The notes under the pieces are model-generated. The model saw only the letters and a program-made list of their open reading frames with translations, was not told the origin of the DNA and did not search any database. A DNA stretch of 64,000 bases from Treponemataceae bacterium (GTDB lineage: Bacteria > Spirochaetota > Spirochaetia > Treponematales > Rectinemataceae): the NCBI GenBank assembly GCA_963667725.2, contig CAXXHO010000005.1, positions 704,001 to 768,000 of the forward strand, in the 5' to 3' direction. This document shows, one piece after another, positions 37,390-55,967 of the stretch (position 1 is the first letter of the stretch; each line of letters opens with the position of its first letter). The position numbers were made by a program, and so were the translations under genes.

Positions 37390-37392
37390 TCG

Positions 37393-38736: not shown

Positions 38737-38747
38737 AACACTTCCTA

Positions 38748-38807: not shown

Positions 38808-39057
38808 CTATTGTATAAAGTTTTAAAATGGGTTCTGCCCCATCTTGGTGTAGCGTAGTGTATTTTTTTGAATCAAAGTCAGTGGCTTTATGCGTTCTCC
38901 AGATAAAGGAGCCTCACATCATAGGCATTTTTATTATTAGAATTCTAAAGCTTGACAATACTTTGGCGAGCCCTTACCCTTCATTGTATAAGAGCCAGAG
39001 CCATAAGGGTTTATATAAACATCGCAAGGTGTCCCTTTTGGCTCTATTTTTTTCCCT

Positions 39058-39527: not shown

Positions 39528-39723
39528 TTCCATAGCTTCGCCCTCCAGCCGTGTGGCTGGATCCTCCAAAAACAGAGGTTTTGGCGCCGTTGCGCATCGA
39601 TCGCGGCCGGAACACGCTGATCGTTCGCTCTACGGTTCAATGTTCAGTCTTTGAACATTCTATGAACAGTATCGGCATGACGCAAGGGCTGGCACAAAAA
39701 TATTTTATGTTTCAGGTGGGGAG

Positions 39724-39838
39724 GACGGGATAACGGGATGAGCAGGATTTACGGGAAAAGGATTTAGGTAAAGAGATGAAATTTCGATTCTTTACCTTAA
39801 ATCTTACATGTCGATCCTGGAGGTCCTGTTATCCTGTC
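39724..39838 (+). repeat. Long palindromic element L2 (115 bp)
   Basis: GACGGGATAACGGGA..GCAGGATTTACGGG..GGTCCTGTTATCCTGTC; short palindrome abuts at 39840-39874. Confidence 0.9.
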
Positions 39839-39930
39839 TAAAAATTTAAAAAATAGAGGTCTGACCCATTTTTCGACTTCTTTGCGCGAAAAATATGTAC
39901 ATTACTGAACAATAGTGTATAGTAAAGCCG

Positions 39931-40551
39931 ATGAAATTCAATGAAATCGTGCGATTATTCGCGGACCGGGCCTGGTTTGACTTCGAGATGGTCCACCTTA
40001 TCTCGGGCGAAGCCTCGGCCTGCGTGCATACGGAACTGTACCGATGGCGGGAATCGGGCAAACTGATCGAACTGCGGCGAGGCCTATTCGCCCTGGCCGA
40101 ACCCTGGAGACATTCGCCCGTCGATGGAGCCTGCCTGGCCGAAGCCCTGTACCCGCCCTCCTACCTATCGGGAACCTGGGCCCTGCGGCGCTATGGACTG
40201 CTTCGCGGCCCGGAAGGCGGCCGCCCGGAGTTCGACTCCGTGACGGCGCGCCCCGCCAAGACCTTCGAAAACACCTTTGGCCGCTATACCTACACCACCT
40301 TCCCCCGCGACCTCCTCTTTGGCACCAAAACCGAGCTGATTGACGGGAAAAGAGTACGGATAACCCTCCCCGAGAAAGCCCTTCTGGACTACTGGTTCAT
40401 CGAAGGCGGGGACTGGGACGAAGAGCGGATAAAGAACGCGGGATTGAGTCGCGGGCCGCTGGATAGGGATAGGATGGAGGCGATGGCGGCGCGCGCGGGC
40501 CGGCCACGGCTCGCGCGCGCCACCGGAGCCTTCCTGAGGGCAGCCCTATGA
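39931..40551 (+). CDS. AbiEi-like type IV antitoxin / transcriptional regulator
   Basis: RWRESGKLIELRRGLF, PSYLSGTWALRRYGL, F.NTFGRY.Y, PEKALLDY. Confidence 0.7.
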   Translation: MKFNEIVRLFADRAWFDFEMVHLISGEASACVHTELYRWRESGKLIELRRGLFALAEPWRHSPVDGACLAEALYPPSYLSGTWALRRYGLLRGPEGGRPEFDSVTARPAKTFENTFGRYTYTTFPRDLLFGTKTELIDGKRVRITLPEKALLDYWFIEGGDWDEERIKNAGLSRGPLDRDRMEAMAARAGRPRLARATGAFLRAAL

Positions 40552-41024
40552 TACGAGAAGAAATCCTCGAGATAGCCGATAAAGCCGAAACGCCTGAAGA
40601 AAAACTTTGCGCGATACGAGCATGCATCCAAGCCGCGGCGCTCCGCTCGCTGCACGAACTGGGAGCCTTCGAAAAACTCTGCCTGACCGGAGAAAGCGCC
40701 CGCCACTTCGCCACCGGAACGCCAGACTACATAACCGACCTCGAATTCAGCCTCGTGGACAAGAAAGGTTACAAACCCGAACAGTGGCTCTTCGCGGTCA
40801 AGCGCCGCCTGCGCTTCATGGGACTCGATCCCCGCATCGCCTTCGCGAGGAAAGCATCCATCCACGCAGGCTGGGTGAAAGTGACCGGCCTCCTCGCCGA
40901 AGAAGTCGGCTTCAGGATCACCATCAATATCGCCCCGATAGAACCCGCGCTGTGCACCGTGAAACTCGTGGACATGGCGGGAGAGTATTTTGGCATTCGG
41001 TATGTAACTTCCTGTCGGTCCTGA
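40548..41024 (+). pseudogene. AbiEii-like nucleotidyltransferase toxin, short and degenerate
   Basis: ATGA overlap with the AbiEi-like gene; GESARHF..DYITDLEFSL resembles GGTALR..SEDLDFS; stop lies inside a repeat arm. Confidence 0.55.
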
Positions 41025-41042
41025 GGGTCCTGTTATCCTGTC
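41009..41042 (+). repeat. Isolated right arm of the long element
   Basis: TTCCTGTCGGTCCTGAGGGTCCTGTTATCCTGTC. Confidence 0.85.
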
Positions 41043-41063
41043 TTTATAGTTATTCCCTTAAGC

Positions 41064-41187
41064 GACAGGATAACAGGAGAAGCAGGATTTACGGAAGAAA
41101 GATTTAGGTAAAGAGAAGATAAGAAGGAAAGAGGATTCTTTAATAAAAGCTTATTCCTGTAGGTCCTGACGGTCCTGTTATCCTGTC
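41064..41187 (+). repeat. Long palindromic element L3 (124 bp)
   Basis: Same termini and core; short palindrome variant abuts at 41189-41216. Confidence 0.92.
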
Positions 41188-41257
41188 TAAAAGTTAAAAA
41201 ACAGGGTTTGATCCCGAATCCGCGAAGTGGTGGCTTTGTGCCACCTTGTCTCGGACT

Positions 41258-42508
41258 TCAACCTAACAGGTAAGCGACATGCACAGCGGTTATGTTGTGC
41301 GCAATTTCTTTCGTATCGGGATCGTTTGAGAGAATGAAACTGTGAAGAAGGGGCTTGTCGAGAAAAGCGTCCAAACCTTTGAGATGACGCGCATCGACCG
41401 CGGCAACCCGAGAAGAAAGCTTTATTTCGAAAGCGAGATATCCCTGCGGCAACTCGATGAGGAGATCCACCTCCCGCCCATCCACCGTTCTCAAGTAGTA
41501 GAAACGCGCATCGGAAAAACTACAGCGTGCCTGCTTGTACAGTTCAGAGACAACAAGACTTTCAAACTCGAAACCCGTGAGACCGCCTCGCTTCCGCGCT
41601 ACCGCCTGTAAAACACCATTATCGAGACAATGGATCTTCGGAGCCTTGACCAGCCGCTTGTTTTCATTTCCGAACCAAGCGGGAAGAACAAGCGCCTGAT
41701 AACTCAACTCAAGATACCGAAGGTACCGTTGTACCGTTTTTACCGATACGCCTACCTCTCGCGCTATCGTTGAACTATTCAAAATCGTGCCCGTCTGCAA
41801 TGCTACATACTGCTGAAGCTTGACGAATGGCTCGAGGTCCCTGAACGAAGCCAGGTCCCTGACATCCCGTTCCAGATAGGTTCGGACATACTGCGTGAGC
41901 CAGTGAAAGCGATCCTCGTCGGAGAGGCTTGGATCGGTGAGCGCCGGATAGCCTCCGAACCGGATATAGTGATCCCAGGCTTTCTGTTTAATCGCCTGTC
42001 GCTTGTCGAAAAGAAAACTTGGCAGAAGAGGCGGAATAGTGTCGGGGGCAGAAAGACAGGCTTGAAAAATGGAATCTGGCACAGGATCATCCCATCCTCC
42101 GGTTTCGAGCTCAGGGACGGTCAAGGGCAAGAGATCGATTATCGTGCAGCGTCCGGCAAGGCTTTCTTTCACCTTTTCGAGAAGCAACAACTGGCTTGAC
42201 CCTAAAAGCACGTAACGCGGTTCCTGCCATTGGTCATAGACTGATTTTACACTCTCAATGAGACGAGGCTCCTTCTGAACCTCATCCAAAATCGCCAAAG
42301 GATACAGCGTGTTCCACTGCGCGGCGGTTAACCGGGCATACTGGACACGAAGGACCGGATCCTCAATCGACAAATATTCATAGCCTGGGAAGAGCATACG
42401 CGCCAGGGTAGACTTGCCAGTCTGCCGGGCTCCCGTGAAGACCATTATCCGGCCACCGGGCTTTTGGGATTGCTCCCTGATATAGTCGGCTATCTTACGA
42501 TTCTTCAT
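41258..42508 (-). CDS. AAA+ ATPase / DUF4143 protein
   Basis: Walker A GARQTGKS, Walker B ILDEVQ, GGYP, TYLERD, EVDLL..FEIK. Confidence 0.9.
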   Translation of the reverse strand: MKNRKIADYIREQSQKPGGRIMVFTGARQTGKSTLARMLFPGYEYLSIEDPVLRVQYARLTAAQWNTLYPLAILDEVQKEPRLIESVKSVYDQWQEPRYVLLGSSQLLLLEKVKESLAGRCTIIDLLPLTVPELETGGWDDPVPDSIFQACLSAPDTIPPLLPSFLFDKRQAIKQKAWDHYIRFGGYPALTDPSLSDEDRFHWLTQYVRTYLERDVRDLASFRDLEPFVKLQQYVALQTGTILNSSTIAREVGVSVKTVQRYLRYLELSYQALVLPAWFGNENKRLVKAPKIHCLDNGVLQAVARKRGGLTGFEFESLVVSELYKQARCSFSDARFYYLRTVDGREVDLLIELPQGYLAFEIKLSSRVAAVDARHLKGLDAFLDKPLLHSFILSNDPDTKEIAHNITAVHVAYLLG

Positions 42509-42514
42509 ACCAAT

Positions 42515-42543
42515 AGTTTCGTATATTTCGGACTTGATGTCCA
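42515..42543 (-). promoter_or_regulatory. Putative sigma70 promoter, leaderless
   Basis: TGGACA-17-GAAACT-6nt-ATG. Confidence 0.4.
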
Positions 42544-42568
42544 GTATATGGCGTATTTTTAGGATATA

Positions 42569-42693
42569 GACAGGATAACAAGATGGGGCAGGATTTACGG
42601 AAGAAGGATTTAGGTAAAGAGAAGATAAGAAGGAAAGGGGATTCTTTAATAAAAGCTTTTTCCTGTCGGTCCTGGGGGTCCTGTTATCCTGTC
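42569..42693 (+). repeat. Long palindromic element L4 (125 bp)
   Basis: Same termini and core. Confidence 0.92.
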
Positions 42694-42697
42694 TTAT

Positions 42698-43906
42698 TTA
42701 CTCAAGACACAGCAGGAACTGCCTGATGTTCATATGACGTATGCCATTCCTGCTCCGATCCACCTCGTCCATCGTCACCACGTATTTTGGATAGTTGTCG
42801 GGAATCGTTTCCAGCACGGAAAATTCCCTTTCGATAGTGTCATCGCTTGCCAGAAGGTAGGCTACCTGCACGTACAGCTTTTCGTTTCCTTTTTTTGCCG
42901 AAAAATCCACCTCGGCTTGAGCGCTTTTCCCTATCGTCACTTCATAGCCATTCCTGAGCAGTTCCATATAGACGATATTTTCCAGGGTCTGATTGATATC
43001 TCTCTGGTTATTGCCGTAGAGGGCTTCGCGTATGCCATGATCGGTCAGGTAGATTTTTTCCTGAAAACTCAAAAGTCTCTTGCCGATCAAATCCTCTCTG
43101 GGCACGAGGTGAAGCAGGCAGGCTTCCTGGCAATAACGGATATAGTTATAGAGCGTTTCGCTCGACAGACTTCGTTTTTCGTTTTTAAGGTACTGAACTA
43201 CCGAAGCGGACGAGAAGGTGTTCCCGACATTGGCGATGAAAAATAGTATCAGGCGCTTCAGCTGGTCGATATCGCGAATTCTGTTTCGCTGCGCGATGTC
43301 CTTGAGGATTATGGAATCGAAGATGTCGCTTAAATATTGCCGCGCCGATGCCGCGTCGAAAGAATGCCGATATAGAAATGGCATTCCGCCCATGACAAGA
43401 TAGCGCGTAAAGACATCAGCCTGGTCTATGGGCATCTTTTCTTCCTCGTAACAGTCCAGTACCTCCCTGAAGGAAAAAGGATATACCTTGATCTCGACAT
43501 ACCTGCCCCCCAGGTAGGTGGCCAACTCGCCGGACAGCATCTTCGCGTTTGAGCCGGTGATGAATATGTCGATATCGAAATCGATCATGCAGGAGTTGAC
43601 GAGCTTTTCCCACCCTTCAAGCTCCTGGACCTCATCCAGGAACAGATATAGCTTCCCTTTTTTGCCTTCCGCCGATGCTTTGATATGGGAATAGGTCAAA
43701 TCGCGGCTTCCAACGTAAGGCTCGACATTGGATTCAAAATTAATGGAAAGCATCCGCGACGGGTCTATACCTTTTTGCAAAAGGTCTTGCCGAATGAGTT
43801 CCAGCAAGACGGTTTTGCCGCATCGTCGCATCCCCGTAAGCACTTTTACGACAGGGGTGTCGATAAAGGGACGAATTTTCTTCAGGTAGGTTTCTCTTCG
43901 TATCAT
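42698..43906 (-). CDS. AAA+ ATPase / DUF4143 protein
   Basis: Start MIRRETYL at 43906; GMRRCGKT, FLDEVQ, ITGSNA, LENIVYMEL, EVDF. Confidence 0.9.
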   Translation of the reverse strand: MIRRETYLKKIRPFIDTPVVKVLTGMRRCGKTVLLELIRQDLLQKGIDPSRMLSINFESNVEPYVGSRDLTYSHIKASAEGKKGKLYLFLDEVQELEGWEKLVNSCMIDFDIDIFITGSNAKMLSGELATYLGGRYVEIKVYPFSFREVLDCYEEEKMPIDQADVFTRYLVMGGMPFLYRHSFDAASARQYLSDIFDSIILKDIAQRNRIRDIDQLKRLILFFIANVGNTFSSASVVQYLKNEKRSLSSETLYNYIRYCQEACLLHLVPREDLIGKRLLSFQEKIYLTDHGIREALYGNNQRDINQTLENIVYMELLRNGYEVTIGKSAQAEVDFSAKKGNEKLYVQVAYLLASDDTIEREFSVLETIPDNYPKYVVTMDEVDRSRNGIRHMNIRQFLLCLE

Positions 43907-43913
43907 ATGGTGA

Positions 43914-43942
43914 AGTATAAACCGACTATATCGAAAATGCAA
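43914..43942 (-). promoter_or_regulatory. Putative sigma70 promoter, leaderless
   Basis: TTGCAT-17-TATACT-7nt-ATG. Confidence 0.6.
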
Positions 43943-43983
43943 TGGGATTAATGATATAGATTTCGTTATATCGAAATATATAG

Positions 43984-44143
43984 GACAGGATAACAGGATG
44001 GGGCAGGATTTACGGGAGAAGGATTTAGGTAACAAGATATACGCTCTTTTCTTATCTCTTTACCATATCGTATTCTTTCTTCTCTTCTCTTCTCTTTCCC
44101 AAAAACTCTTTCCTGTTAGTCCTGCTGGTCCTGTTATCCTGTC
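43984..44143 (+). repeat. Long palindromic element L5 (160 bp)
   Basis: Same termini, pyrimidine-rich core; 4 mismatches to L6. Confidence 0.92.
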
Positions 44144-44154
44144 CTATTTTATGT

Positions 44155-45336
44155 TTAATAAGCAAAGCCCAAAAGCCATAGAGGAATTGCCTTCCCGGCG
44201 GGATAGTCCATATCGTCGCGGATTACGAAGTCGGCCTGTTTAAAATTTTTTGAATGTCCGCCCACCTCTATCCTGTATTTCCTCGTCCCTCCAGAACCTG
44301 CCGCCTCGGAGATTACGAAATCGGCTTCCGTTTCATTCCTTGCGGCTTCGACCTTCCATCCCGCGCCGGAGCAGAGCGCGGTAACCAAGGCTTCGCGCGC
44401 GGTTCCCCTGTCCCCATTCAGCGCCGAATACAAGGCCGGATCGGAGAAGAACATTTTCTCGCCGACAGATTTCGCCTTCGTGTCGTTTTCGACGCGAACG
44501 ATACGGAGCACCCCCACGGATTCCATGACCTCCAGCAGCTGATAAAGCTTGTCGCTGCCGACACCCCAGTCGGCGCAGAGCGATCTCACCTGGAGACGCG
44601 GAATGGCTGCGTTTCCCAGCGTGCCCACAATCGCCTTCATAAGGCGGAGATTGCCATCGGTGATCCCCGGGAGGAAAAAAGGCACATCCGAATAGAGTGT
44701 CTTATCCAGAACGGCAAGGAGTCGATCCTGAAAGTCTCCCTCGCCGTAGAAAGGCCGGGTGCCTATGCGACGGTACTTCTGGAAAGCGTCGAGCAGGGCT
44801 GGCGTCGGCGCCAATGGAAGCGCTTGAGCTGGCGAAAAAGGATCTAGTCGTGGATAAAGAATCCCTGTCTCCAAAGACAGGAATTCCCTGAATGAAAGAA
44901 GAGGCATCTGGATCGGCAGGTAGCGACGGGAAAGATCTCCCACGGCGCTTCGCAGCACGAGCGAAGAAGAATCGCTAATCCAGATCGAATGCGAAGGGAA
45001 GTCATCATACAATGCCTTGACGTGAAGGCTCCACTCTTTCGCGAAATGGACTTCATCGATGATGACGCCTTCATAGCCGATTAAAAAAATGCCTTTAACG
45101 AGATCATAGAGGCTAATCCCCGCGATGATGGGATTGTCCGCCGAAAGGTAGAGAATTCGCTTTTTATTGATATGGTACAGCAGAAACGTGGTTTTACCGA
45201 CGCCTCTGGGGCCCGTGAGCACCACCGCGCGGGGAAGCGGGGGCTGCTCCACCGTGAAGGGTCGCATCACCGCAGGCATGGCCGCGTGGCGCCGCTGCAT
45301 GGCTGTCTCCAAGTCCACGACATATTTATTGTCCAT
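44155..45336 (-). CDS. AAA+ ATPase (AAA_14-like) protein
   Basis: GPRGVGKT, IIDEVH, DLSRR, EADF..IEVGG, IPLWLLGF. Confidence 0.88.
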   Translation of the reverse strand: MDNKYVVDLETAMQRRHAAMPAVMRPFTVEQPPLPRAVVLTGPRGVGKTTFLLYHINKKRILYLSADNPIIAGISLYDLVKGIFLIGYEGVIIDEVHFAKEWSLHVKALYDDFPSHSIWISDSSSLVLRSAVGDLSRRYLPIQMPLLSFREFLSLETGILYPRLDPFSPAQALPLAPTPALLDAFQKYRRIGTRPFYGEGDFQDRLLAVLDKTLYSDVPFFLPGITDGNLRLMKAIVGTLGNAAIPRLQVRSLCADWGVGSDKLYQLLEVMESVGVLRIVRVENDTKAKSVGEKMFFSDPALYSALNGDRGTAREALVTALCSGAGWKVEAARNETEADFVISEAAGSGGTRKYRIEVGGHSKNFKQADFVIRDDMDYPAGKAIPLWLLGFAY

Positions 45337-45342
45337 AGCTGA

Positions 45343-45371
45343 AGCATACAGCAATATCGTTCTTACGACAA
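45343..45371 (-). promoter_or_regulatory. Putative sigma70 promoter, leaderless
   Basis: TTGTCG-17-TATGCT-6nt-ATG. Confidence 0.55.
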
Positions 45372-45417
45372 GTACATATTATAATATTTGTACCTGCTGT
45401 GGATACGTTACCAATAA

Positions 45418-45577
45418 GACAGGATAACAGGATGGGGCAGGATTTACGGGAGAAGGATTTAGGTAAAAAGATATACGCTCTTTTCTTATCTCTTTACCAT
45501 ATCGTATTCTTTCTTCTCTTCTCTTCTCTTTACCAAAAACTCTTTCCTGTAGGTCCTGCTGGTCCTGTTATCCTGTC
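45418..45577 (+). repeat. Long palindromic element L6 (160 bp)
   Basis: Near-identical to L5. Confidence 0.92.
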
Positions 45578-46425
45578 TTTATTGCTATTCCCCGAATACC
45601 CGATTCGACCAGGTAAAGAGGTAGGGAAATGAGCGTGAAGGGCTTGCTCGATTTGCCCGCGATCGCGGTACTGGTAGATAGAATGGAAGGCAAGTCCGTA
45701 TTGAACCTGAGGGCTAGGTCAACCTCTTTTTCCTGGACGAACATATGAAGCGACCTGAGACGCCCCGTGGCTCCGGCTTTTACTTCCACGGGCAGAACTC
45801 GGTTTTCTTTTTGAATGAGAAAATCCACCTCCGCCGTTGAACCTTTGGCGGGGCGATTCCAATAGTAAAGATGAGGTTCGGCATACCCAGGCTGAGCATA
45901 CAGAAGATGCTGACCGATAAACTGCTCCGCGAAAGCCCCGGAGTTCACCATCGCGAAGTTTTCCGCCTGGCCTAGCTCTTGGGGTTTCAGTCCTGATAAC
46001 GACAAGGCCAATCCGATGTCCAGAAACAGCAGCTTGAAAGAACTTGCTTCCGCTTCCGCGCCCAAGGGAAGTCCGTTGCCGTGGCTGTGCATGACTGGAT
46101 AGATTAGTCGGGCTTTTTGCAGCAGATCCAGGCATTCTTTTATTTCCCGTGACTTTACTTGGCGGTTCAACGCCGAGTATTTGATCGTTTTTCCAAGTTG
46201 ACCGGGTATTTTTATAAAAAGATCCTGCGGAAGCCCGATATTGGCCCTTTTCTTGTACTTGCCGAAGTCGAGAAAAAAAGTCTGCAGAATGGCGTTTTGC
46301 TCCTGCCACGCCCTTGAAACATCCAGACCCGACTCGATATAGTCCTTCAACTCGGCCTTACCGGGGGTTTCGTCAAAGTTGGTCTCAACGTAGGTTTCGA
46401 ATTCCCGCGCGGCGAATATGCGCAA
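45568..46425 (-). pseudogene. AAA+/DUF4143 paralogue lacking Walker A and B (in-frame deletion)
   Basis: Aligns to the 48109 gene but lacks the N-terminus and ~138 internal aa; retains EVDF..PVEVK. Confidence 0.75.
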
Positions 46426-46478
46426 TGGCTATTGTATACTAAATTTTTGTCCACTTTTGTATATTTTTATAGGTTTAG

Positions 46479-46602
46479 GACAGGATAACAGGAGAAGCAG
46501 GATTTACGGGAAATGGATTTAGGTAAAGAGAAGATAAGAAGGAAAGAGGATTCTTTACTAAAAGCTTTTTCCTGTAGATCCTGAGGGTCCTGTTATCCTG
46601 TC
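46479..46602 (+). repeat. Long palindromic element L7 (124 bp)
   Basis: Same termini and core. Confidence 0.92.
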
Positions 46603-47889
46603 GAGTATAGAAAGCGCATAGAGAGGAATGTTTGTCAGCCAGCGCTCTTCACGGTACGCGGAGAGCGAGGTTCTGAAGCAGCGTGGAGGAGAAAACTTTT
46701 CATTATAGACCCGAAGGCTCTTGGCCTGCAGGTTTTCGGCAGCCTTCACCTCAAGTGGATAGATGGAATCTTGGCCTTGGATCAGGAAGTCGACCTCAGC
46801 CCTCGAAGTGTCGCTGGACCAGTATGAAGCGTCCATTTCTTCCATAAGGCGTAATTCCTGCGCGACATATTGTTCGGTCAGCGCTCCCTTGAATTCTTCA
46901 AAAAGAGCGTTCCCATGCAATACCGTTTGTATCGGCAGGCCAGAATGTGCCGCCAACAGCCCGATATCAAGCATGTAAAGCTTGAACGCGTTGAGTTCCT
47001 GATATGCCTTAAGAGGGAGCCCCGGTTTCGATACTCTAAAGGTTTTGCGCGATAATCCCGCATCGCAAAGCCACTCGATCGCGCTTTCGTATTCTCTTGC
47101 CCTGGCGCCTTCACGAATGAGACCGTACATGAACTTTTTCTGCTCCCGCGCCAATTGAGCCGGCAAGGAATTCCACACCGCCCGAATTCGAGGAACCGTG
47201 TCCGATTTCGCATATTTGGAAAAATCCCGTTCATAAGCTTCAAGCAGTTCTTTCTGGAAGGTACGAACCTGGCCAAGATCCTTCGTCGCCACAAAGGTTG
47301 CCACGCTTTCCGGCATGCCGCCAACGCAATAGTAATATCGCAGGAATTCGATCAGTTTCTCCCTGAACGCATCGATCATCGGCCAATCACTTGATGAAAC
47401 GAGATCCGCCAGCGCGGATTCGCCAATGGCTTTTAAAAATTCCAAGAAAGAAAGAGGATAAAGGTTTAAAAAGTCGACTTTGCCCACGGGAAAAGAATTC
47501 TCCGCATGCAACGAGATTCCCAAGAGCGATCCTGCCGCCACAAGATGATACTGGGGAGCATTCTCATAAAAATACTTGAGCGACGTGAGCGCCTTTGGGT
47601 TTTCCTGGACTTCATCGAAGATGATGAGCGTCTTTTCGGGTTCAATAGGCAGGCCGGTCTCAATACGCAAGCCCATGAGTAGACGCTCAGGATCCACGTT
47701 GGATGAAAAAAGCGTCGCCATTCGCTCATTGGACTCAAAATTTATATAGGCGACGTTTTGGTATGCCCTTTTGCCGAATTCTTTCAGCAGCCATGTTTTG
47801 CCGACTTGGCGGGCACCGTTTAGAACGAGAGGCTTTCTGCGCTTATCGCTTCGCCACGCCAGCAAGTCAGCAAGGGCTTTTCTTTCCAT
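46558..47889 (-). CDS. AAA+ ATPase / DUF4143 protein
   Basis: Start MERKAL at 47889; GARQVGKT, IFDEVQ, AAGSLLG, GGMPE, EVDF..PLEVK; C-terminus reads into L7. Confidence 0.9.
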   Translation of the reverse strand: MERKALADLLAWRSDKRRKPLVLNGARQVGKTWLLKEFGKRAYQNVAYINFESNERMATLFSSNVDPERLLMGLRIETGLPIEPEKTLIIFDEVQENPKALTSLKYFYENAPQYHLVAAGSLLGISLHAENSFPVGKVDFLNLYPLSFLEFLKAIGESALADLVSSSDWPMIDAFREKLIEFLRYYYCVGGMPESVATFVATKDLGQVRTFQKELLEAYERDFSKYAKSDTVPRIRAVWNSLPAQLAREQKKFMYGLIREGARAREYESAIEWLCDAGLSRKTFRVSKPGLPLKAYQELNAFKLYMLDIGLLAAHSGLPIQTVLHGNALFEEFKGALTEQYVAQELRLMEEMDASYWSSDTSRAEVDFLIQGQDSIYPLEVKAAENLQAKSLRVYNEKFSPPRCFRTSLSAYREERWLTNIPLYALSILDRITGPSGSTGKSF

Positions 47890-47896
47890 AGATACA

Positions 47897-47925
47897 AGTG
47901 TATTCGTTGTCATCACAAAAGTGAA
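47897..47925 (-). promoter_or_regulatory. Putative sigma70 promoter, leaderless
   Basis: TTCACT-17-TACACT-7nt-ATG. Confidence 0.5.
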
Positions 47926-47985
47926 GCCTGTTTTGTGCAGTATAATCACATAAGTCTTACAAGTTTTGTGTTTGTCTCGCTAAGA

Positions 47986-48102
47986 GACAGGATAACAGGA
48001 TGGGGCAGGATTAACGGGAGAAGGATTTAGGTAAAGAGAAGAGAATTCAATTCTTTACCTATAGCTTTTTCCTGTCGGTCCTGAAGGTCCTGTTATCCTG
48101 TC
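47986..48102 (+). repeat. Long palindromic element L8 (117 bp)
   Basis: Same termini; short palindrome AAAAGTTAACAAATGGGGTCCGACCCCGG abuts at 48104-48132. Confidence 0.92.
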
Positions 48103-48108
48103 CAAAAG

Positions 48109-49519
48109 TTAACAAATGGGGTCCGACCCCGGCCGCAGGAGCCTTTCGGCTTGTTCCACGAGGTATAAGGGGAGTGAGAGAAGCTTAAAGGGCTGAGGTT
48201 TTTTCCCCGCGATCGATGTTGTGGACTCAAGGCATGAAGGCAGATCGTCATTGAAGCGCAAACCCAAGGAAGCGTTCTTCTCCTGTATGAACACCTGGAG
48301 CGACCTGAGCCGGCCCGTCTTGCCTGCCTTGACTTCGACAGGAACGGCAAGGCTTCCCGCCTGGATGAGATAATCCACCTCGGCGGTGGAACCCTTGCTC
48401 TGTCGGTTCCAGTAAAAAAGGGAAGGCTCGTGATAGAACCCATTCCGATACAGAAGATGCTGGCCGATGAACTGCTCCGCCATGGCGCCGGAATTGACAA
48501 GCGTCATATCCTTATCACGCGGTAAGTCGGCCGCGTTCAGACCGAGAAAAGACGCCAGGAGACCAATATCCAGAAAAACCAGCTTAAAGGAGGAAGGATG
48601 GATTTCGGCGCCAAGGGGAATCCCATTTCCATCTGAATGAAAAACCCTAAACACGAGGCGCGCCTTCTCTAATAGATCAAGACTCTCTCTCACCTGGATC
48701 GACCGAGCGAGAGGATTGAGACTCGAGTATTTCGCCGTCTTGCCAATCGTCGCGGGAATGTTCTTGAAGACCGCCTGCAGCATCGGTACATCGACCTTTC
48801 GCTTATATTTGCTGAAATCGGCATAATAGGTGAGCAAAAGGCTACTCTGCGCGCGTGCCGCGGCTTTCATGTCGAGATCCGATTCTATGAAAGCCTTGAC
48901 AACCCCCGGCAAGCCCCCTACCAGGAAATATTCCCTCAAGAAGGCTCGCGCCTTGGCATGAAGCGCTTCGGGCAGGCTTTGAGAAATTCGATACATGGAA
49001 AGATACTCACGCAACTGTTCCTGCCCGCGAGCCAGGAGAAATTCCTCGAAACTCATTGGCCCCAGATACATGAACTCGATTCTTCCGACGGGAACGGAGT
49101 ATTCCGGCGCGCCGAGAGAGAAATCCAAGAGGGAGCCAGCGGCGATAACATGGAGTTCCGGCATCTTTTCGTAAAAATAGCGGAGCTTGGCCAGTACGGC
49201 GGGCGCTCCTTGAATTTCATCGAGGAAGAGAAGGGTTTCCCCCGGGACAATCTTCTTTGAAGCATCGGCTTCGATAAGCCGCACGATGGTCCGGACATCA
49301 GGCTCGTCGAAAAGGCTCGCCTTCTCGGGATTTTCATCGAAATTGATCTCCACGATCGAATCGAATGCCTGTCGCGCGAAAATCCGCACGAGTTCCGTTT
49401 TTCCGACCTGCCGCGCGCCGCGTATGACGAGAGGTTTTCTGTCTCAGGCGCCAGGCGCCAGGTTTTCTGTCGGGTCTCAGGCGCCACTGCGCGAGGAAAT
49501 CGAGAGCAAAGCGTTTCAT
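48109..49519 (-). pseudogene. AAA+ ATPase / DUF4143 protein disrupted by a 28-bp insertion near the 5' end
   Basis: Removing 49432-49459 restores MKRFALDFLAQWRLRPDRKP-LVIRGARQVGKT in frame with FLDEIQ..EVDY..PVEVK. Confidence 0.85.
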
Positions 49520-49526
49520 AATGTTG

Positions 49527-49555
49527 ATTATACAATATTTACCTAGTATTTTCAA
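49527..49555 (-). promoter_or_regulatory. Putative sigma70 promoter, leaderless
   Basis: TTGAAA-17-TATAAT-7nt-ATG. Confidence 0.7.
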
Positions 49556-49588
49556 CAATTATTGCTATTATTATAGGATATAATAGCA

Positions 49589-49712
49589 GACAGGATAACA
49601 GGAGAAGCAGGATTTACGGAAATAGGATTTAGGTAAAGAGAAGATAAGAAAGAAAGGGAATTCTTTAATAAATGCTTTTTCCTGTAGGTCCTGGGGGTCC
49701 TGTTATCCTGTC
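49589..49712 (+). repeat. Long palindromic element L9 (124 bp)
   Basis: Same termini and core. Confidence 0.92.
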
Positions 49713-49718
49713 CTATCG

Positions 49719-50111
49719 CTAGGGCGCCTTCTTGGGCGCGGGGGCATAGTCCCTATACTTGCGTTTGAAGTTTATGTCCTGGGGCCCGAAGTTGATGATG
49801 AGGCCCGTGGGCGTATTGGTGGCTTTTAAGTAATTCACGAGCTGTATCTCATGGACTTTATTGATGGCTTCCACAGCCTTGAGTTCCAGGATGACCTGAC
49901 CATTAACGATAACGTCGGCAAAGAAAAAACCGATCATCGATCCTTCGTAATACACCTCGATCGGCGCTTCGATGATGAAGGGCAGCTTGGCTTTATGCAG
50001 TTCTATGGCCATCGCCTGCTTATAGACCGATTCCAGGAAGCCCGCGCCGAGGGTGTTGTATACCGTAAAGGCACAACCGATGATTTTTTCCGTGAGGGGA
50101 TCTTCCACCAT
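49719..50111 (-). CDS. GxxExxY protein (PD-(D/E)XK nuclease superfamily)
   Basis: 130 aa; GFLESVY = GxxExxY; ADVIV..ILELKAV, QLVNYL, GLIINFG. Confidence 0.92.
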   Translation of the reverse strand: MVEDPLTEKIIGCAFTVYNTLGAGFLESVYKQAMAIELHKAKLPFIIEAPIEVYYEGSMIGFFFADVIVNGQVILELKAVEAINKVHEIQLVNYLKATNTPTGLIINFGPQDINFKRKYRDYAPAPKKAP

Positions 50112-50152
50112 ACCTTTATCGCGCGCGGGGTGGGGGCTTTTGATTCAATGTG

Positions 50153-50276
50153 GACAGGATAACGGGATGAGCAGGATTTACGGAAGAAGGATTTAGGTAA
50201 AGAGAAGATAAGAAGGAAAGACGATTTTTTAATAAAAGCTTTTTCCTGTAGGTCCTGAAGGTCCTGGTATCCTGTC
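50153..50276 (+). repeat. Long palindromic element L10 (124 bp)
   Basis: Same termini and core. Confidence 0.92.
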
Positions 50277-50308
50277 CAATTATATCATTTTTCGGTATTA
50301 TCCATGTA

Positions 50309-51601
50309 ATGCCCACTATTCAAACCTATACGGCTATCATCATTGGAGCGGGGCCGTCGGGCCTCTTCGCCGCCATTCGACTCGCCGAAGCCATCGGCGG
50401 CGGCGAGGGCATCCTCGTTCTCGAGCGCCGCGAGAAACCCGCCCGCAAGCTGCTTCTCTCAGGGTCAGGCCAGTGCAACCTCACCCACGCGGGGGAAATA
50501 GCCGACTTCCTCGGCCACTACGGCGGCGGACCGAAGGCCGAATCGGCCGCACGCTTCCTAAAACCCGCCCTCTACGCCTTCACTAACGAGGAACTCCTCG
50601 CCTGGTTTGGCGCCCGGGGCATCGAATTCGAGACCGAGGATTCGGGCAAAGTCTTCCCCGCCGACCGCCGCGCCACTTCCGTTCTCAAGATTCTCCAGGA
50701 CGAAGCCTATCGCCTGGGCGTGCGCATAGCGGCGAACAGCCGCGTCAGCGGCATAAGCGTCTCAGAGGGCTTTCTCGTACGGGTGGAAGCGGTGACCGCC
50801 GATGCTCCGGCTGCTCCGGAGCCCGCCGAATATCGCGCCCCGATTGTCCTGATCGCCACGGGAGGCTTGTCCTACCCCAAAACCGGCAGCACGGGTGACG
50901 GCTACGCGCTCGCGGCCTCCTTGGGACATCGCGTCGTCCCGCCCAGGCCGGCTCTCGCGCCCGTTTACGTCCGGAACTTCGCCCTCAATCCTCTCGCTGG
51001 GCTTTCCTTCCATGACGCGGGCCTTTCGGTGCTTCGCGAGGGCAAGCGGGTCTTTTCCGCTGAAGGCGACCTTCTCATAACTCACGAAGGCCTCTCGGGA
51101 CCTCTCATCCTCGACGCGTCGCGCCATATCGCGCCGGGCGACAGTCTCGAGGTCAATTTTGTCGATGTTGCTATCGAGGAATTCCGGAACCGCCTGGACG
51201 CCGAGCTCAAAGCCAATCCCCGGCGCCTGGTCCGCACGGCCCTCGCCGATCTCGGCCTGGCCAAAAACATGGCTGAACTATTCTGCGACCTTTCGGGCAT
51301 AACCAAGGAAGAAACCGCGGCGGCCCTTCCCCGCGCCAAGAGGGAAGCGCTCTGCCGCTTCGCCTGCGCCCATCCCTTCTTCGTGGCTCGCCTCGGCACG
51401 CTTGAGGTGGCCATGGTCACCGCGGGAGGCGTCGATCTCGCCGAGGTGAATCCCGGCAGCATGGAGTCGCGCATCGTCCCCGGCCTCTTCTTCGCGGGCG
51501 AGGTCCTCGACATCGACGGCGACACTGGCGGCTATAATCTCCAGGCCGCCTTCTCGACCGGCTCCCTCGCGGCCAAGAGTATGGCTATGAGAAAGAATTA
51601 G
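50309..51601 (+). CDS. HI0933/YhiN-family NAD(P)/FAD-dependent oxidoreductase
   Basis: GAGPSG, KLLLSGSGQCNLT, ATGGLSYPKTGSTGDG, VTAGGV, GDTGGYNLQAA. Confidence 0.92.
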   Translation: MPTIQTYTAIIIGAGPSGLFAAIRLAEAIGGGEGILVLERREKPARKLLLSGSGQCNLTHAGEIADFLGHYGGGPKAESAARFLKPALYAFTNEELLAWFGARGIEFETEDSGKVFPADRRATSVLKILQDEAYRLGVRIAANSRVSGISVSEGFLVRVEAVTADAPAAPEPAEYRAPIVLIATGGLSYPKTGSTGDGYALAASLGHRVVPPRPALAPVYVRNFALNPLAGLSFHDAGLSVLREGKRVFSAEGDLLITHEGLSGPLILDASRHIAPGDSLEVNFVDVAIEEFRNRLDAELKANPRRLVRTALADLGLAKNMAELFCDLSGITKEETAAALPRAKREALCRFACAHPFFVARLGTLEVAMVTAGGVDLAEVNPGSMESRIVPGLFFAGEVLDIDGDTGGYNLQAAFSTGSLAAKSMAMRKN

Positions 51602-51748
51602 ACATGATCACATGATTGATCATGATCGACGGGAAAGAAGAATAGGTTAAAGAAAGATCTTCTATTTCTTTTTTCTCTTTCTCTCTTTCTTTCTTTCTTT
51701 AATAAAATCTTTTTCCTGTAGATCCTCCCCAGTCCCGTAGATCCTGTC
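51601..51748 (+). repeat. Degenerate long element L11
   Basis: GACATGATCACATGAT...TTTTCCTGTAGATCCT..CCCGTAGATCCTGTC. Confidence 0.7.
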
Positions 51749-51781
51749 TAAATTAGGCGCCGCAACGCGTCGATCATTAGG

Positions 51782-51825
51782 CGAAAAGTTAAAAATTGGG
51801 GTCTGACCCCTTTTTTTAACTTTCG
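51782..51825. repeat. Short palindromic repeat, most symmetric copy
   Basis: CGAAAAGTTAAAAATTGGGGTCTGACCCCTTTTTTTAACTTTCG; contains the mtnA stop codon. Confidence 0.85.
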
Positions 51826-52850
51826 TAGTAGCGGGCGAGGTCGTAGGGGGGGTAGATGCCCTTGTCGGTGACGATGCCGTCGCAGAGTTTGGGCGGGGTG
51901 ATGTCGAAGGCGGGGTAGAAGCCGTGCACGCCCCGCATGGCGGTGCGGACGCCCATGGCTTCGAGGACGTCGTTCTCGTCGCGCTCTTCGATTTTCACCG
52001 TGTCGATGGTGGGGTGCTGGCGGTTGGGCGAGCCCGTGCAGAAGTAGGGTATGCCCCAATAGCGCGCCGCGAGGGCGATTTGGAAGGTGCCGACCTTGTT
52101 GACGATGTGGCCGTCCATGCAGATGACGTCGGCGGCCGAGGTGAAGACGTCGACGTGTTTGGCTTTCATGGTGTAGCCGGGCATGTTGTCGGTGATGACG
52201 GTGACGTCGAAGTCCATGTCGCGCACGACGGATGCGGTGAGGCGGGCGCCTTGGAAGTAGGGTCTGGTCTCGGGGCAGATGACTTTGATGGTTTTACCTC
52301 GGCTCCGGCATTCGCGCAGCATCATGCCGACGATGGTTTCGGCGAAGCACTGGGTCATGACGGTGCCGTTGTCGGGGAACTGGTCGACGAGGTATCTCGC
52401 GCCAGCGGCGCTGCGGGCGTAGCGTTTGTTCACCGCGTCGATGGTGTGCTCGAAGACGGCTTTGTCGGGCGCCTTGCCGGCGGCTTTCGCCTCGATGGCC
52501 ACCTTGGCGCAGGCTTCCGTGATCGTGGCCATTTTTTCGGCCGTGGTGGGGCGGGCGTGGGAGATTTCAAAGGATGCCTTGGCGATGCGCACGGCAAAAT
52601 CGCTCGCGCCTTCTAAGGCGATCTGGCGCGCGGCGAGGGCCATGCCCATGCCGGCGGCCACGTAGGGGCCCCCCGACTGGGTGACCATGGCTTTGATGGC
52701 CAAGATGACGTCCGCGTAGGTTCTGCAGGTGACATATTCGATCCTGGCGGGATAGACGCGGCGGTCGAGGATGCGCACCGTTTCGCCGTCGTACCAGGCG
52801 ACGTTTTCGTACATGAGCATGAAGGCGAGGTCTTTGTCCTGTCGTTCCAC
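51816..52850 (-). CDS. mtnA: S-methyl-5-thioribose-1-phosphate isomerase-like (eIF-2B family)
   Basis: ILDRR, ARPT, ETRPYFQGARLT, NKVGT, IEER, YPAFDITP; GTG start after AAGGAG. Confidence 0.85.
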   Translation of the reverse strand: MERQDKDLAFMLMYENVAWYDGETVRILDRRVYPARIEYVTCRTYADVILAIKAMVTQSGGPYVAAGMGMALAARQIALEGASDFAVRIAKASFEISHARPTTAEKMATITEACAKVAIEAKAAGKAPDKAVFEHTIDAVNKRYARSAAGARYLVDQFPDNGTVMTQCFAETIVGMMLRECRSRGKTIKVICPETRPYFQGARLTASVVRDMDFDVTVITDNMPGYTMKAKHVDVFTSAADVICMDGHIVNKVGTFQIALAARYWGIPYFCTGSPNRQHPTIDTVKIEERDENDVLEAMGVRTAMRGVHGFYPAFDITPPKLCDGIVTDKGIYPPYDLARYYES

Positions 52851-52900
52851 GGTTGTCTCCTTGTCGAGAAATTCTATGCTATGGCTTTGTTTATTTTTTT

Positions 52901-53059
52901 GACAGGATAACAGGAAAGACCAGGATTGACAGGAAAGAGAAGAAAAGATTTTGGGTAAAGAAAGAGAGAAGAAAAAATTGGCTGTGTCCATGTAATACTA
53001 AATCTTCTCTTTACCCTATTCATAGTCTTGTTCATCCTCTCTTGCCTGTTGATCCTGTC
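52901..53059. repeat. Diverged long element L12
   Basis: GACAGGATAACAGGAAAGACCAGGATTGACAGGA...CCTGTTGATCCTGTC. Confidence 0.8.
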
Positions 53060-53074
53060 AAAGTGTCGGCGCCC

Positions 53075-53719
53075 CTAGTCGGGCAAGCCCAGCCGGGCCT
53101 TTATGGCCTTGACGGCCTCTTCGGGAATGGTCTGGATCTTGCCGGCGCCGAGGGCGAGCGAGTAGATCTTGGCCGCGTCCTCGACGTAGATGGCGCGCAG
53201 ATGGGCCTGCTCGATGGTGGAGCCGACGGCGACGGCCCCGTGGTTGCGCATGAGGCAGGCGTTGCGCTTCGCGAGGCTTTCGACGACGCGCTCGCCCAGG
53301 GCTACGGTGCCGGGCATGGCGAAGTCGGAGACGGGGATGTCGCCGCCTATGTAGGCCAGCATTTCGATGAGGATGAGGGGGATGGGCATGCAGGTGACCG
53401 CGAAGCTCGTCGCGTAGGGCGAATGGGTGTGGACGACGCCGAAGATGTCGGGGCGTCCGTTCATGATGGCGGTGTGCATGCGCCACTCGGAGGAGGGCCG
53501 GTGCCTGCCCTCGACGATGGATCCGTCGCTCATCCGGATCACCATGATGTCGTCCAGGGTCATTTTCTCGTAGCGGAAGGAGCTTGGCGTGATGGCCAGG
53601 AATTCCTTGGCCTCGTCGCAGGCGCTCAGGTTGCCGCTCGTGCCCGCGAAGAGGCCTTCGTCGTAGGCCATGAGGGTGTTTTCGAGCACTTTTTCCTTCA
53701 ATTCCCTTATCGTCAGCAT
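53075..53719 (-). CDS. Class II aldolase (fuculose-phosphate aldolase-like)
   Basis: GTSGNLS, ITPS, PSSEWRMH, HTHS, MRNHG. Confidence 0.88.
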   Translation of the reverse strand: MLTIRELKEKVLENTLMAYDEGLFAGTSGNLSACDEAKEFLAITPSSFRYEKMTLDDIMVIRMSDGSIVEGRHRPSSEWRMHTAIMNGRPDIFGVVHTHSPYATSFAVTCMPIPLILIEMLAYIGGDIPVSDFAMPGTVALGERVVESLAKRNACLMRNHGAVAVGSTIEQAHLRAIYVEDAAKIYSLALGAGKIQTIPEEAVKAIKARLGLPD

Positions 53720-54948
53720 AGGTTCCTCTTTTCGCGTAGCGATGCCTCTACGAGCGCGCGCAGAAAGTCGCGGCCTTCCCTGTAGTTCCGGCGGTCTTTT
53801 ATGTAGGCCTTGGCGGCGAGAACGACGATCCTTTCGGCTCTCGCCCTGGCCTCGGCCGGTTCTATGGAGGTGAGATCCTTCACCTGGGCCACGCCCACGA
53901 CGCGGCGGATCATCTCGAGTCCGGCCACGCCCGCCGTATCGGCTATGATAGTCGAAAGAAACCATTCGGCGTAACCGGGTGTCCTCCCCATGGGGTCGGT
54001 GGCGCTCTCTTTGTAGAGCGCGAGGAACTTCGCCTTGAAGAGGTCGACGGTGGCGACGATGGTGTCCTCCAGCCAGCCGATGTAGCTGACCGCGGCGGCG
54101 CCCTCCCCCATCGTGACCCGGGCGTTGGCCCAGGCGAAGCAGAAATTGCCGATAACGTTGCCGACGTCGTAGCCTATGGGGCCGAAGTAGGCGAATTCGG
54201 GGTCTATCACCTTGGTGGAGTCTTCCCTGACGAAAATGGAGCCCGAATGGAGGTCGCCGTGGATGAGAGCCTGGGCGTCGTTCATGAAGGCGTACTTGAG
54301 CTTGGCCACTTCGAGATGGAGCTCGGTGTCCGAGAAGAGCTCCTCTTGCGCGAAGGCCGCGTTGGGCGGGAAGACCTTGGTCCTCCCCGGCTTGTTGGTG
54401 TAGGGCTCGGTGTAGACAAGCTGCTCGGTGATGGCGCACAGAGGCGGATTGGTGTAGCGCTTCACGAGTTCTTTCTTCCTTACAGGGTCCATCACCATGT
54501 CGAGGGTGGGCACGAGGGTCTTGGCCATGAAGTCGCTTATGTCTTCGGCGAGCCTGGGGAAAATTTTGTGTTTGATGAGTTCGTAGCGGAGGATGACGTG
54601 GTCGGAGAGGTCCTCCATGGAAAGACAGGCCATCACGGGGTCGTAGTCGTAGACTTCGGGCACGAGGCCGGGGGCCAGCTCGCCTTCCATCTTGAGGATT
54701 TCCGCCTCGATGCGGTTGCGGTCGAAGCCGAGGGTCCGGGAGCCTGAACGCGTGTCGGCGTCGGCGTGCTTGACGATGACGGAGTCGCCGCTGTCCGGAT
54801 CCCTCACCCTGAAGATGAAGTTGATGTTGCCGTCGCCGATCTCCTTGGCCTCGAGCCGCTTCGATGCCGCGAAGCGGGGGAGTCGGTATCGGGCGTATTC
54901 GGCCGCGTCGGCCTCGCCCATGCGGAAATGGCTGTCGAATTTCGGCAT
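53713..54948 (-). CDS. mtnK: S-methyl-5-thioribose kinase
   Basis: EIGDGNINFIF, LIHGDLHSGSI, IDPEFAYFGPIGYD, EMIRRVVG.A.V.D. Confidence 0.92.
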   Translation of the reverse strand: MPKFDSHFRMGEADAAEYARYRLPRFAASKRLEAKEIGDGNINFIFRVRDPDSGDSVIVKHADADTRSGSRTLGFDRNRIEAEILKMEGELAPGLVPEVYDYDPVMACLSMEDLSDHVILRYELIKHKIFPRLAEDISDFMAKTLVPTLDMVMDPVRKKELVKRYTNPPLCAITEQLVYTEPYTNKPGRTKVFPPNAAFAQEELFSDTELHLEVAKLKYAFMNDAQALIHGDLHSGSIFVREDSTKVIDPEFAYFGPIGYDVGNVIGNFCFAWANARVTMGEGAAAVSYIGWLEDTIVATVDLFKAKFLALYKESATDPMGRTPGYAEWFLSTIIADTAGVAGLEMIRRVVGVAQVKDLTSIEPAEARARAERIVVLAAKAYIKDRRNYREGRDFLRALVEASLREKRNLC

Positions 54949-54968
54949 AGCTGCGTCCTTCCCCTTCC

Positions 54969-55967
54969 TCAATTATCGCTGGTGCTGGAGTAGTAGGTGG
55001 AAGCGAGGGCCAGGGCAAGCACGACGCCCTTGACCGCGTTCAGCGAATAGTAGGGCACCGACATCATGATGAGGCCGTTTTCCAGTATGCCCACGAGAGA
55101 GGCTCCCACGAAGGTGCCGAAGGCGTTGGGCTTGCCCGCGCCCGCCACGGATCGTCCGATGAAGACGGCCGAGATGGCCGGCATGGCGTAGCCGGCGGCG
55201 CCCTGGATTTGGGCCGACATGTTGCGCGAGGCGACAAGGACCCCTCCCAGGCCTATGAAGGCCGCGGCGAGAAGGCCGGCGTAGACGCGGTAGCGGTAGA
55301 TGGGGATGCCCGAGAGGCGCGCGGCTTCCTTGTTGCCGCCGACGGCGTAGATGTAGCGTCCGTACTTGGTGTAGGTGAGGAATATGTGCACCACGACGAC
55401 GATGACGATCATGATGATGATGATGGTGGGCGCCTGGCCCATGTTCTTGAAGGTCTGGGAGATCTTGCCCAGGGTGTCGGCGCCGTTGGGCCTCGGCATG
55501 CCTTCGGAGAGGGCGCCGCCGCCCGAGTAGGTGAGGCTGAGTCCGTCCAGCATGAACATCATGGCGAGGGTGGCCAGGAGGTCGGGGATCTTGAATTTGA
55601 CGATGAGGAGCATGGTGATCATCATCAGGCCCATGGTGAGGACGAGGGCGAGGGGAATGGCCAGCCACATGCTCATCTGGTACCAGACGATGAAGCTGAT
55701 GACGAGGGATCCCGCCATGGAGGCCATCGAGCCGGAGGAGAGGTCGAAGCCTCCCACGGCGAGGGTGATGGTGAGGCCTATGCCGATGATGGTGGTGATC
55801 GAGATGGACCTCAGGATGGTGATCATGTTGCTGCTGGTGAGAAACATCTTGGGCATGCGCAGGGCGAAAAACGCGAATACCGCGACGAGGGCGATGAGGG
55901 ATGCCCATTTTCCCAAAAAGTCCGAGGCCTTGCCCTTAGGCATGGCCGTGGCTTCCGCTTTCGACAT
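54969..55967 (-). CDS. Sugar ABC transporter permease
   Basis: GGFDLS, TKYGRYIYAVGGNKEAARLSGI; start overlaps the ATPase stop (TAATG). Confidence 0.9.
   Translation of the reverse strand: MSKAEATAMPKGKASDFLGKWASLIALVAVFAFFALRMPKMFLTSSNMITILRSISITTIIGIGLTITLAVGGFDLSSGSMASMAGSLVISFIVWYQMSMWLAIPLALVLTMGLMMITMLLIVKFKIPDLLATLAMMFMLDGLSLTYSGGGALSEGMPRPNGADTLGKISQTFKNMGQAPTIIIIMIVIVVVVHIFLTYTKYGRYIYAVGGNKEAARLSGIPIYRYRVYAGLLAAAFIGLGGVLVASRNMSAQIQGAAGYAMPAISAVFIGRSVAGAGKPNAFGTFVGASLVGILENGLIMMSVPYYSLNAVKGVVLALALASTYYSSTSDN

Follow-up and report, generated by a model that had tools for sequence, protein, structure and literature searches.

The window, i.e. the whole stretch of 64,000 nucleotides of a Treponemataceae bacterium analysed here, contains a gene for a 130-aa protein of the GxxExxY family, set between two hairpins at one end of a repeat-rich gene array. 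Is this protein the enzyme that acts on the surrounding repeats, as the earlier note on this DNA proposed, or one more gene that the repeats delimit?

The GxxExxY gene and its flanking hairpins

The repeat-gene-repeat unit spans 688 bp (49589-50276), with the layout already given by the earlier note: hairpin A (49589-49712), 6 bp (49713-49718), the ORF on the minus strand (49719-50111), 41 bp (50112-50152) and hairpin B (50153-50276). Both hairpins are 124-bp imperfect palindromes. Hairpin A, downstream of the gene, has arms with three CAGGA units spaced by 8-9 bp. Hairpin B, upstream of the gene, is the first element of the array, and a decayed copy of it occupies the matching place in a genome of the same genus (G002). 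As DNA, hairpins A and B fold with z = -8.0 and -5.9 on the plus strand, none of 200 shuffles folding equally well. The CAGGA units are indeed periodic, though not strictly with the period of about 9 bp first noted, their spacings in the window hairpins being 8, 9 and 9 bp. The hairpin ends read GACAGG...CCTGTC with variable outer bases. An Rfam scan of positions 35000-55000 returned five weak matches, all far below the gathering score. The unit is terminal in the array, more precisely at its upstream end relative to cassette transcription. The tight bracketing pointed out in the earlier note is not special to this gene: for other cassettes the distance to a hairpin is 4, 6 or 11 bp. Since every gene of the array is bracketed as tightly, the local layout alone proves little for the GxxExxY gene. 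The signal beyond chance comes from the family-wide flank test described below and not from the window locus.

The protein sequence matches PF13366 (PDDEXK_3; E-value = 7e-39, 133 bits against a cut-off of 22) and TIGR04256 (GxxExxY; E-value = 1e-40, 139 bits against a cut-off of 35). The motifs GFLESVY, D..ELK and QxxxY, read from the letters beforehand, are all present (G24-F-L-E27-S-V-Y30, D66, E76-L-K78 and Q90-xxx-Y94), and residues G24, E27, D66, E76, K78, Q90, Y94 and R117 are invariant in 79 of 79 aligned sequences. We take E...D...ExK...QxxxY to be the catalytic motif of RecB/Cas4-type PD-(D/E)XK nucleases. The gene is intact and under purifying selection, codon changes relative to close homologues being mostly silent (synonymous to non-synonymous 22:6 and 33:10). 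The AlphaFold2 model of the window protein (pLDDT 91.7) has its best Foldseek match in Cas4 SSO0001 (E-value = 1.7e-5, TM 0.58), followed by LHK exonuclease, MGME1 and lambda exonuclease; the VIA-align Z-scores of 8.3-8.4 for restriction-like folds and Cas4 are of a middling level. A sequence search of the PDB with the 79-row profile gave nothing below an E-value of 0.1, and the ESM Atlas returned GxxExxY clusters alone. The protein thus has a nuclease core of the RecB/Cas4 type, which is maintained and probably active. It has the core fold and the E...D...ExK...QxxxY motif in common with Cas4, lambda exonuclease and the RecB family (PDB 4ic1, 4r5q, 3syy), but it is just 130 aa long, has no CRISPR or helicase partner, and its fold matches are middling. 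It is not a Cas4 proper: with one cysteine in 130 aa and no conserved cysteine column, it has no four-cysteine Fe-S cluster. No cas genes were found among the array ORFs scanned.

Cassettes of the array are exchanged at hairpin ends

The array (38748-50276) encodes mostly co-oriented AAA_14+DUF4143 proteins matching the PADLOC candidate PDC-S01; an AbiE pair is also present. Beyond the lead cassette, GxxExxY, the minus-strand cassettes and the hairpins found by the repeat search follow in this order: c48 (AAA_14+DUF4143, PDC-S01; 48109-49520), with a sigma-70-like promoter at 49555-49527; a hairpin (47986-48102); c46.5 (AAA_14+DUF4143, PDC-S01; 46558-47949); a hairpin (46479-46602); c45.5 (DUF4143; 45568-46425); a long-loop hairpin (45418-45577); c44 (AAA_14 ATPase with a weak PDC-S01 match; 44155-45354); a second long-loop hairpin (43984-44143), 97% identical to the first; c42.7 (AAA_14+DUF4143, PDC-S01; 42698-44035); a hairpin (42569-42693); c41 (AAA_14+DUF4143, PDC-S01; 41258-42508); and, within 41009-41187, a full hairpin (41064-41187) with a lone right arm (41009-41042). 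An AbiEi gene with a short AbiEii (39931-41024, plus strand) lies between hairpins; the next hairpin (39724-39838) is absent at the matching site of G002 (contig C3), and a short 60-bp hairpin (38748-38807) closes the array beside UDP-glucose dehydrogenase. Two cassettes are damaged in the window and whole in the genome G025: the start of c48 is interrupted, with a short duplication near it (49420-49500), and c45.5 is shortened by an internal loss (471 aa in G025). According to PMC12988326, PDC-S01 is an ATPase fused to a PD-(D/E)XK domain, the fourth commonest candidate, and mostly unvalidated.

The source genome (G000) holds two GxxExxY genes, the second of which lies on contig C4 between two hairpins, heading an AAA array. 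Contigs C1, C2, C4, C6 and C7 are redundant with C5 or with each other (80-98% alike) and are probably co-binned relatives, the contamination of the bin being 6.26%. Given this redundancy and contamination, we reject the C4 gene as an independent second copy of the same cell, and treat C4 and C6 as sister strains. A related array is found in L003, a contig filed under Candidatus Shapirobacteria; the array is of the spirochaete type and the protein 95% identical, owing to misbinning or recent transfer. GxxExxY is the first cassette in the window, in C4 and in L003, all three being close kin.

Comparison of these arrays reveals changes of neighbours. Cassette c48 is preceded by GxxExxY in the window, by another hairpin in G025 and by c46.5 in C4; c44 is preceded by c45.5 in the window and by a different AAA gene in L003. 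For c46.5, the upstream and the downstream neighbour are different in each of the window, C4 and C6. Cassette identity starts at most about 12 bases from the last base of a hairpin and stops at the first base of the next one. C4 and C6 are 92% alike and have the first hairpin in common, after which C4 continues with GxxExxY and a hairpin, and C6 with hicA. Contigs from other metagenomes, which cannot show excision, contain joints at hairpin ends (e.g. 49713 to 38865), and in G002 unrelated genes replace the array. Judged from these alignments, cassettes are exchanged between strains at hairpin ends.

Such exchange may be carried out by plain homologous recombination, which is compatible both with a GxxExxY protein that mobilises the repeats and with one that only binds them. 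According to the latter explanation, the arms are GxxExxY binding sites for self-regulation or protection of the own locus, not mobility sites; they would spread by slippage, gene conversion, hitch-hiking or host recombination, and the cassettes would be shuffled by homologous recombination between the 120-165-bp repeats, which are 85-95% identical. The hairpin subtype goes with the array and not with the cassette, and this homogenisation per array speaks for it, as do arrays without the gene, such as the hairpin and AAA-cassette array of G005 (a fragmented MAG). Further evidence on both sides is given below; overall, we regard a binding-only role as rather unlikely.

Integron cassette arrays and CALINs consist of co-oriented cassettes separated by attC palindromes, reordered, with the enzyme gene at the head. 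The array likewise has co-oriented defence-like and toxin-antitoxin genes between imperfect palindromes of about 120 bp, a strain-variable order and an enzyme gene at its head. It differs from integrons in that there is no adjacent tyrosine recombinase, a promoter of its own precedes at least one cassette, the gene at the head points the same way as the cassettes, and hairpin subtypes follow the array. Could the hairpins then be atypical attC sites moved by the IntI of the genome, GxxExxY being merely one cassette? G000 does encode a true IntI (447 bits against a cut-off of 265), and the array is integron-like. This IntI, however, lies about 190 kb from the array and has its own canonical attC array (CTAAC...GTTAG), the sequence of which is unrelated to the window hairpins; the hairpin ends lack the R boxes of attC (RYYYAAC...GTTRRRY); and the arm-gene-arm units found across phyla would be left unexplained. 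We give this possibility hardly any credence, and with no adjacent IntI/attI and no R boxes an integron is rejected. The complete chromosomal integron of G000, with IntI and more than 15 canonical attC cassettes in 15 kb, is located outside the window (C5:535000-552300; also C1 and C7).

The window contains other repeats. A palindromic repeat with an A-tract and GGGGTC-GACCCC (family D9), often abutting hairpins, occurs at 807-849, 1900-1942, 2322-2364, 41188-41230, 48103-48145 and 51783-51825; G002 lacks the 51783 copy, and a DUF4143 gene at the start of the window (L486) is flanked by this repeat as well. There are also a 300-bp direct repeat (1941-2240/6794-7093, 95%) and a 213-bp inverted repeat (9823-10035/27512-27724, 77%).

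Inverted arms flank GxxExxY genes across phyla

We collected 80 GxxExxY loci by similarity and added loci from 61 relatives and from 25 genomes of other phyla (L021 and L132 (G066) excluded from the counts). A label-free score compares the upstream flank with the reverse-complemented downstream flank. The threshold score of 12 is reached in 104 of 127 GxxExxY loci, against 3/109 windows shifted by 700 bp and 0/127 shuffled ones. In held-out loci, mostly HMM-chosen from three other phyla (16 short matches removed), it is reached in 69/83, against 2/80 controls. The predicted enrichment of GxxExxY homologues in periodic inverted flanks is thus borne out. The cargo family DUF4143 reaches the score in 1/18 and 2/22 loci (3/40 in all, another 20 of 60 being unusable), and has periodic arms on both sides in 0/40 loci versus 53/80 for GxxExxY. 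GxxExxY loci among the relatives scored lower (10/21).

Arm labels were obtained for 119 loci, after dropping 20/157 cores without anchor motifs and 18/137 without an arm label; the heptamer panel was picked after viewing the flanks, and these labels are not blind, whereas the label-free score and the held-out loci are. Of the labelled loci, 72 have the gene within a single arm pair and 20 between two hairpins; 22 have other arrangements and 5 are truncated. The repeat-gene-repeat unit proposed for the window is therefore real there, but the family norm is arm-gene-arm. These units measure about 440-620 bp, each arm being an A/T tract with three clade-specific heptamers phased by 8-10 bp. Left and right arms of one locus share locus-specific variants, i.e. 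they mutate together, and the flank turns over except for the phased heptamers. The ancestral form of the unit has the arm-gene-arm layout and a length of about 450-600 bp. For a binding-only role this anatomy is awkward, as an operator needs neither a mirror copy downstream nor dozens of dispersed copies of the same class; nor does it fit with the catalytic site being invariant in all 79 sequences.

An RNA-level element, like the intervening sequences of 23S rRNA, would also have paired arms: these would pair in the transcript, and RNase III would free the gene or process the operon mRNA. Many units are in fact co-oriented in operons, directly behind a stop codon. Wobble mismatches in the arms nevertheless exhibit no sense-strand bias (19 sense, 20 antisense and 25 ties, n = 64), the better-folding strand in arrays is mostly the antisense one, and structure alone would not preserve a clade-specific phased heptamer. 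We consider this explanation very improbable. A 23S rRNA intervening sequence as such is rejected by the lack of strand bias and by the position of the loci seen, between protein genes and not inside an rRNA gene.

The GxxExxY gene is present in 23/61, 39/121, 23/101 and 56/101 genomes of four samples. Viral contigs contributed 4 loci and a plasmid collection 8 records, all non-mobilizable; a phage collection contained no GxxExxY record. These plasmid and phage results favour a binding-only role. The closest named loci to the window protein are mostly from Spirochaetota MAGs, Rectinemataceae included. Proteins that match PDDEXK_3 in part and are longer or divergent (G039 (L104), L101, L123, L151, L154 and L216) mostly lack an arm signal, and the family may have an arm-less branch among them. 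In Prevotella (L063:5345-5560, compared with L429), the right arm of a unit provides the start and first codons of the downstream gene, the original ones being replaced.

Arm classes follow the protein tree

The earlier note had suggested testing whether the flanking repeats co-vary with the protein tree; the arm class does follow it. On a tree from a quick IQ-TREE search (120 columns, SH-aLRT only), the coarse arm class changes 4 times, against 38-50 when shuffled, and the fine class 24 times, against 55-62. With the similarity-selected rows removed (52 left), 4 coarse changes compare with 10-15 for shuffled labels. The clade of the window protein (71 rows, SH-aLRT 96) keeps the GACAGGAT arm class, a label carried by 57 rows of the whole tree, plus a Prevotella variant. 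Its members come from archaea and from about a dozen phyla of bacteria, which include Planctomycetota, Verrucomicrobiota, Acidobacteriota, Calditrichota, Bacillota and Nitrospirota. Near-identical clades at unrelated sites in unrelated phyla are difficult to reconcile with arms that are only binding sites. Paralogues in one host carry different arm classes (A, B, D, E and F in G083; A, B and E in G081; A and B in G078). The nearest protein predicts the coarse class correctly in 66/82 held-out loci, the majority class accounting for 54/82.

Few changes on a tree indicate shared descent rather than co-evolution, and the arms, being physically linked to the gene, would carry a gene-tree signal even if the protein ignored them. 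The finer arm bases switch often; in a search for residue-to-base covariation the top columns track clades, and no independent-pairs test among those shown neared significance. Linkage does not explain, however, why the phased heptamer alone survives amid the turnover of the flank.

Gene-less hairpins and the mobility of the units

Hairpins of the matching class also occur elsewhere in a genome, without the gene. In G000 there are 40 full and 26 half elements; the two main contigs account for 17 of the full ones, C4 and C6 for 23. Two degenerate stand-alone hairpins are present in the window at 51601-51748, between housekeeping genes and absent in G002, and at 52901-53059, absent in G001 and G002. 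Among the relatives, all fragmented MAGs, at least 10 A-class hairpin matches are found in 3/5 genomes with a clade-A gene, against 4/56 without. Genomes rich in class B hairpins are 4/9 carriers and 2/52 non-carriers, carriers being classed by their own arms, which makes the comparison partly circular; the D-class pattern is too sparse for scoring. G012 and G059 escaped the strict two-arm pattern, probably because its 9-bp spacing does not fit the first spacing here, which is 8. As to the earlier expectation that element-rich genomes carry the gene, carriers are enriched as expected, but no GxxExxY gene was found in four of the seven A-hairpin-rich relatives (94-99% complete MAGs). Nor was one found in G059, a fragmented MAG rich in both A and B hairpins.

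At one spirochaete junction, filled, decayed, nested and empty states are observed across relatives; this suggests old residence with decay to gene-less forms, and some units are old residents of one junction, kept vertically. In G059 (L404), an A-class hairpin is nested in a B-class hairpin remnant where relatives carry the whole unit. Separately, 7-bp-periodic inverted repeats occupy operon junctions that are used by GxxExxY units in relatives (L393 in G059, L427 in G413, L252/L266 in G067). They may belong to a parallel system built around a different small gene, possibly one for a four-helix bundle.

Target-site duplications of 3-8 bp are at the shuffled level for 40 hairpins and 34 arm-gene-arm units, and the empty-site junctions are ragged in comparisons of relatives. 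No insertion, excision or jump event was caught in the contigs compared. The sole clear multi-copy burst among 10 genomes compared is that of G067 (81 matches), bounded by a foreign outer inverted repeat with the arms inside in 26/30 loci examined. About 13 of 23 loci with both ends show, by eye, a 3-bp TWA duplication. The carrier (L244-L273) is a MITE-like element of about 80 copies with a C-TWA-G target; together with GxxExxY units in a decayed state it carries nested repeats from other classes, and a check of a single locus did not reveal its transposase. The burst looks like carriage of GxxExxY units by the MITE of another element, and a burst riding in a foreign repeat again favours a binding-only role.

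A homing-type selfish nuclease is another explanation. Its gene would have invaded the loop of an older hairpin family, and the enzyme would cut gene-less hairpins or vacant junctions and be copied in by repair. The position of the gene within a single arm pair in 72/119 loci, the filled, decayed and empty states of one orthologous junction, the nesting of elements of different class in G059 and the absence of target duplication all agree with it. Yet 10-36 intact gene-less cognate hairpins coexist with an intact single gene, where an efficient homing nuclease should have converted or destroyed them, and with about 30 bp the arms offer little length for repair by homology. Homing thus seems to us quite unlikely.

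A proposed role for GxxExxY

We see about an even chance that GxxExxY is the cognate nuclease of a widespread gene-and-repeat system and makes its arms recombinogenic. From the observed anatomy of the units, the pattern of specificity and the exchange points, we infer binding, cutting and movement by GxxExxY as follows. Several protein molecules would attach to the phased units, or to the hairpin once extruded, and would nick or resect the DNA at the arms, and host recombination or strand annealing would complete the event. Arms and units would in this way be copied into further intergenic sites that tolerate them, no target duplication being made, and the hairpins would become exchange points for neighbouring genes. 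The enzyme may later be dispensable, existing hairpin arrays persisting and shuffling without it. Some hairpin-rich genomes without the gene, the possible shuffling of cassettes by ordinary recombination and the lack of any jump caught count against GxxExxY as a mobiliser. A stronger version is possible, though doubtful: the 130-aa Cas4-like nuclease alone would be the recombination trigger of pan-prokaryotic mobile units of about 500 bp, with a clade-specific code of phased heptamers; it would seed gene-less hairpins and, in spirochaetes, drive an array that resembles an integron but has no integrase, and in which candidate anti-phage genes are gathered and rearranged.

The arms provide this common family with a specific candidate substrate, for which naturally occurring pairs, cognate and non-cognate, can serve as controls. 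If GxxExxY mobilises them, it would represent a new enzyme class, with the smallest gene-bearing units among mobile elements; it would account for intergenic hairpins of a class that is very common in little-studied phyla, and offer a second route, beside integrons, to modular defence-gene arrays such as PDC-S01. Even with a passive enzyme, hairpin-delimited cassette exchange is seen here at base resolution.

Comparison with known systems

In Steczkiewicz et al. 2012 (PMC3424549), PDDEXK_3, the same family as GxxExxY, is given the function "Unknown" and "multiple transfers, mixed clades", and the text examined mentions no repeats with it. In another paper, GxxExxY appears as an incidental neighbour of a reverse transcriptase. 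TIGR04256 is not mentioned in the literature searched, which also contains no account of a GxxExxY gene-arm system; subscription papers and supplements could hold such motifs.

Insertion sequences and MITEs such as ERIC, as described in Delihas 2011 (PMC3184786), resemble the GxxExxY units in their terminal inverted repeats around one ORF, in gene-less derivatives of 60-170 bp and in empty orthologous sites. GxxExxY units differ from them in their size (about 450-600 bp), ragged junctions and long vertical residence. They are not IS/MITE elements, having no target-site duplication and no known transposase class (DDE, HUH, serine or DEDD). Of the two parallels drawn by the earlier note, transposase/MITE fails for want of target duplication, and RAYT/REP is apt in the sense of "works like".

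As described in Bertels and Rainey 2011 (PMC3116915), the REPIN-RAYT system also has an enzyme gene in low copy number with repeats of its own class beside it, scattered extragenic hairpin doublets without the gene, and a correspondence between enzyme and repeat classes; its mechanism of spread is still open there. RAYT, however, is an HUH Y1 (IS200-like) transposase and GxxExxY has a PD-(D/E)XK core of the Cas4/RecB type; REPs are palindromic in themselves and GxxExxY arms are phased triple heptamers. Unlike in REPIN-RAYT, the GxxExxY gene is usually inside one arm pair, several arm classes occur per genome, and the spread is broad, across phyla and domains. The window protein is not a RAYT: it matches PF13366/TIGR04256 alone, and its fold is PD-(D/E)XK, not HUH Y1. 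We conclude that the GxxExxY genes and their arms form a real and specific gene-repeat system, apparently undescribed, which works like REPIN-RAYT and stands outside all families tested.
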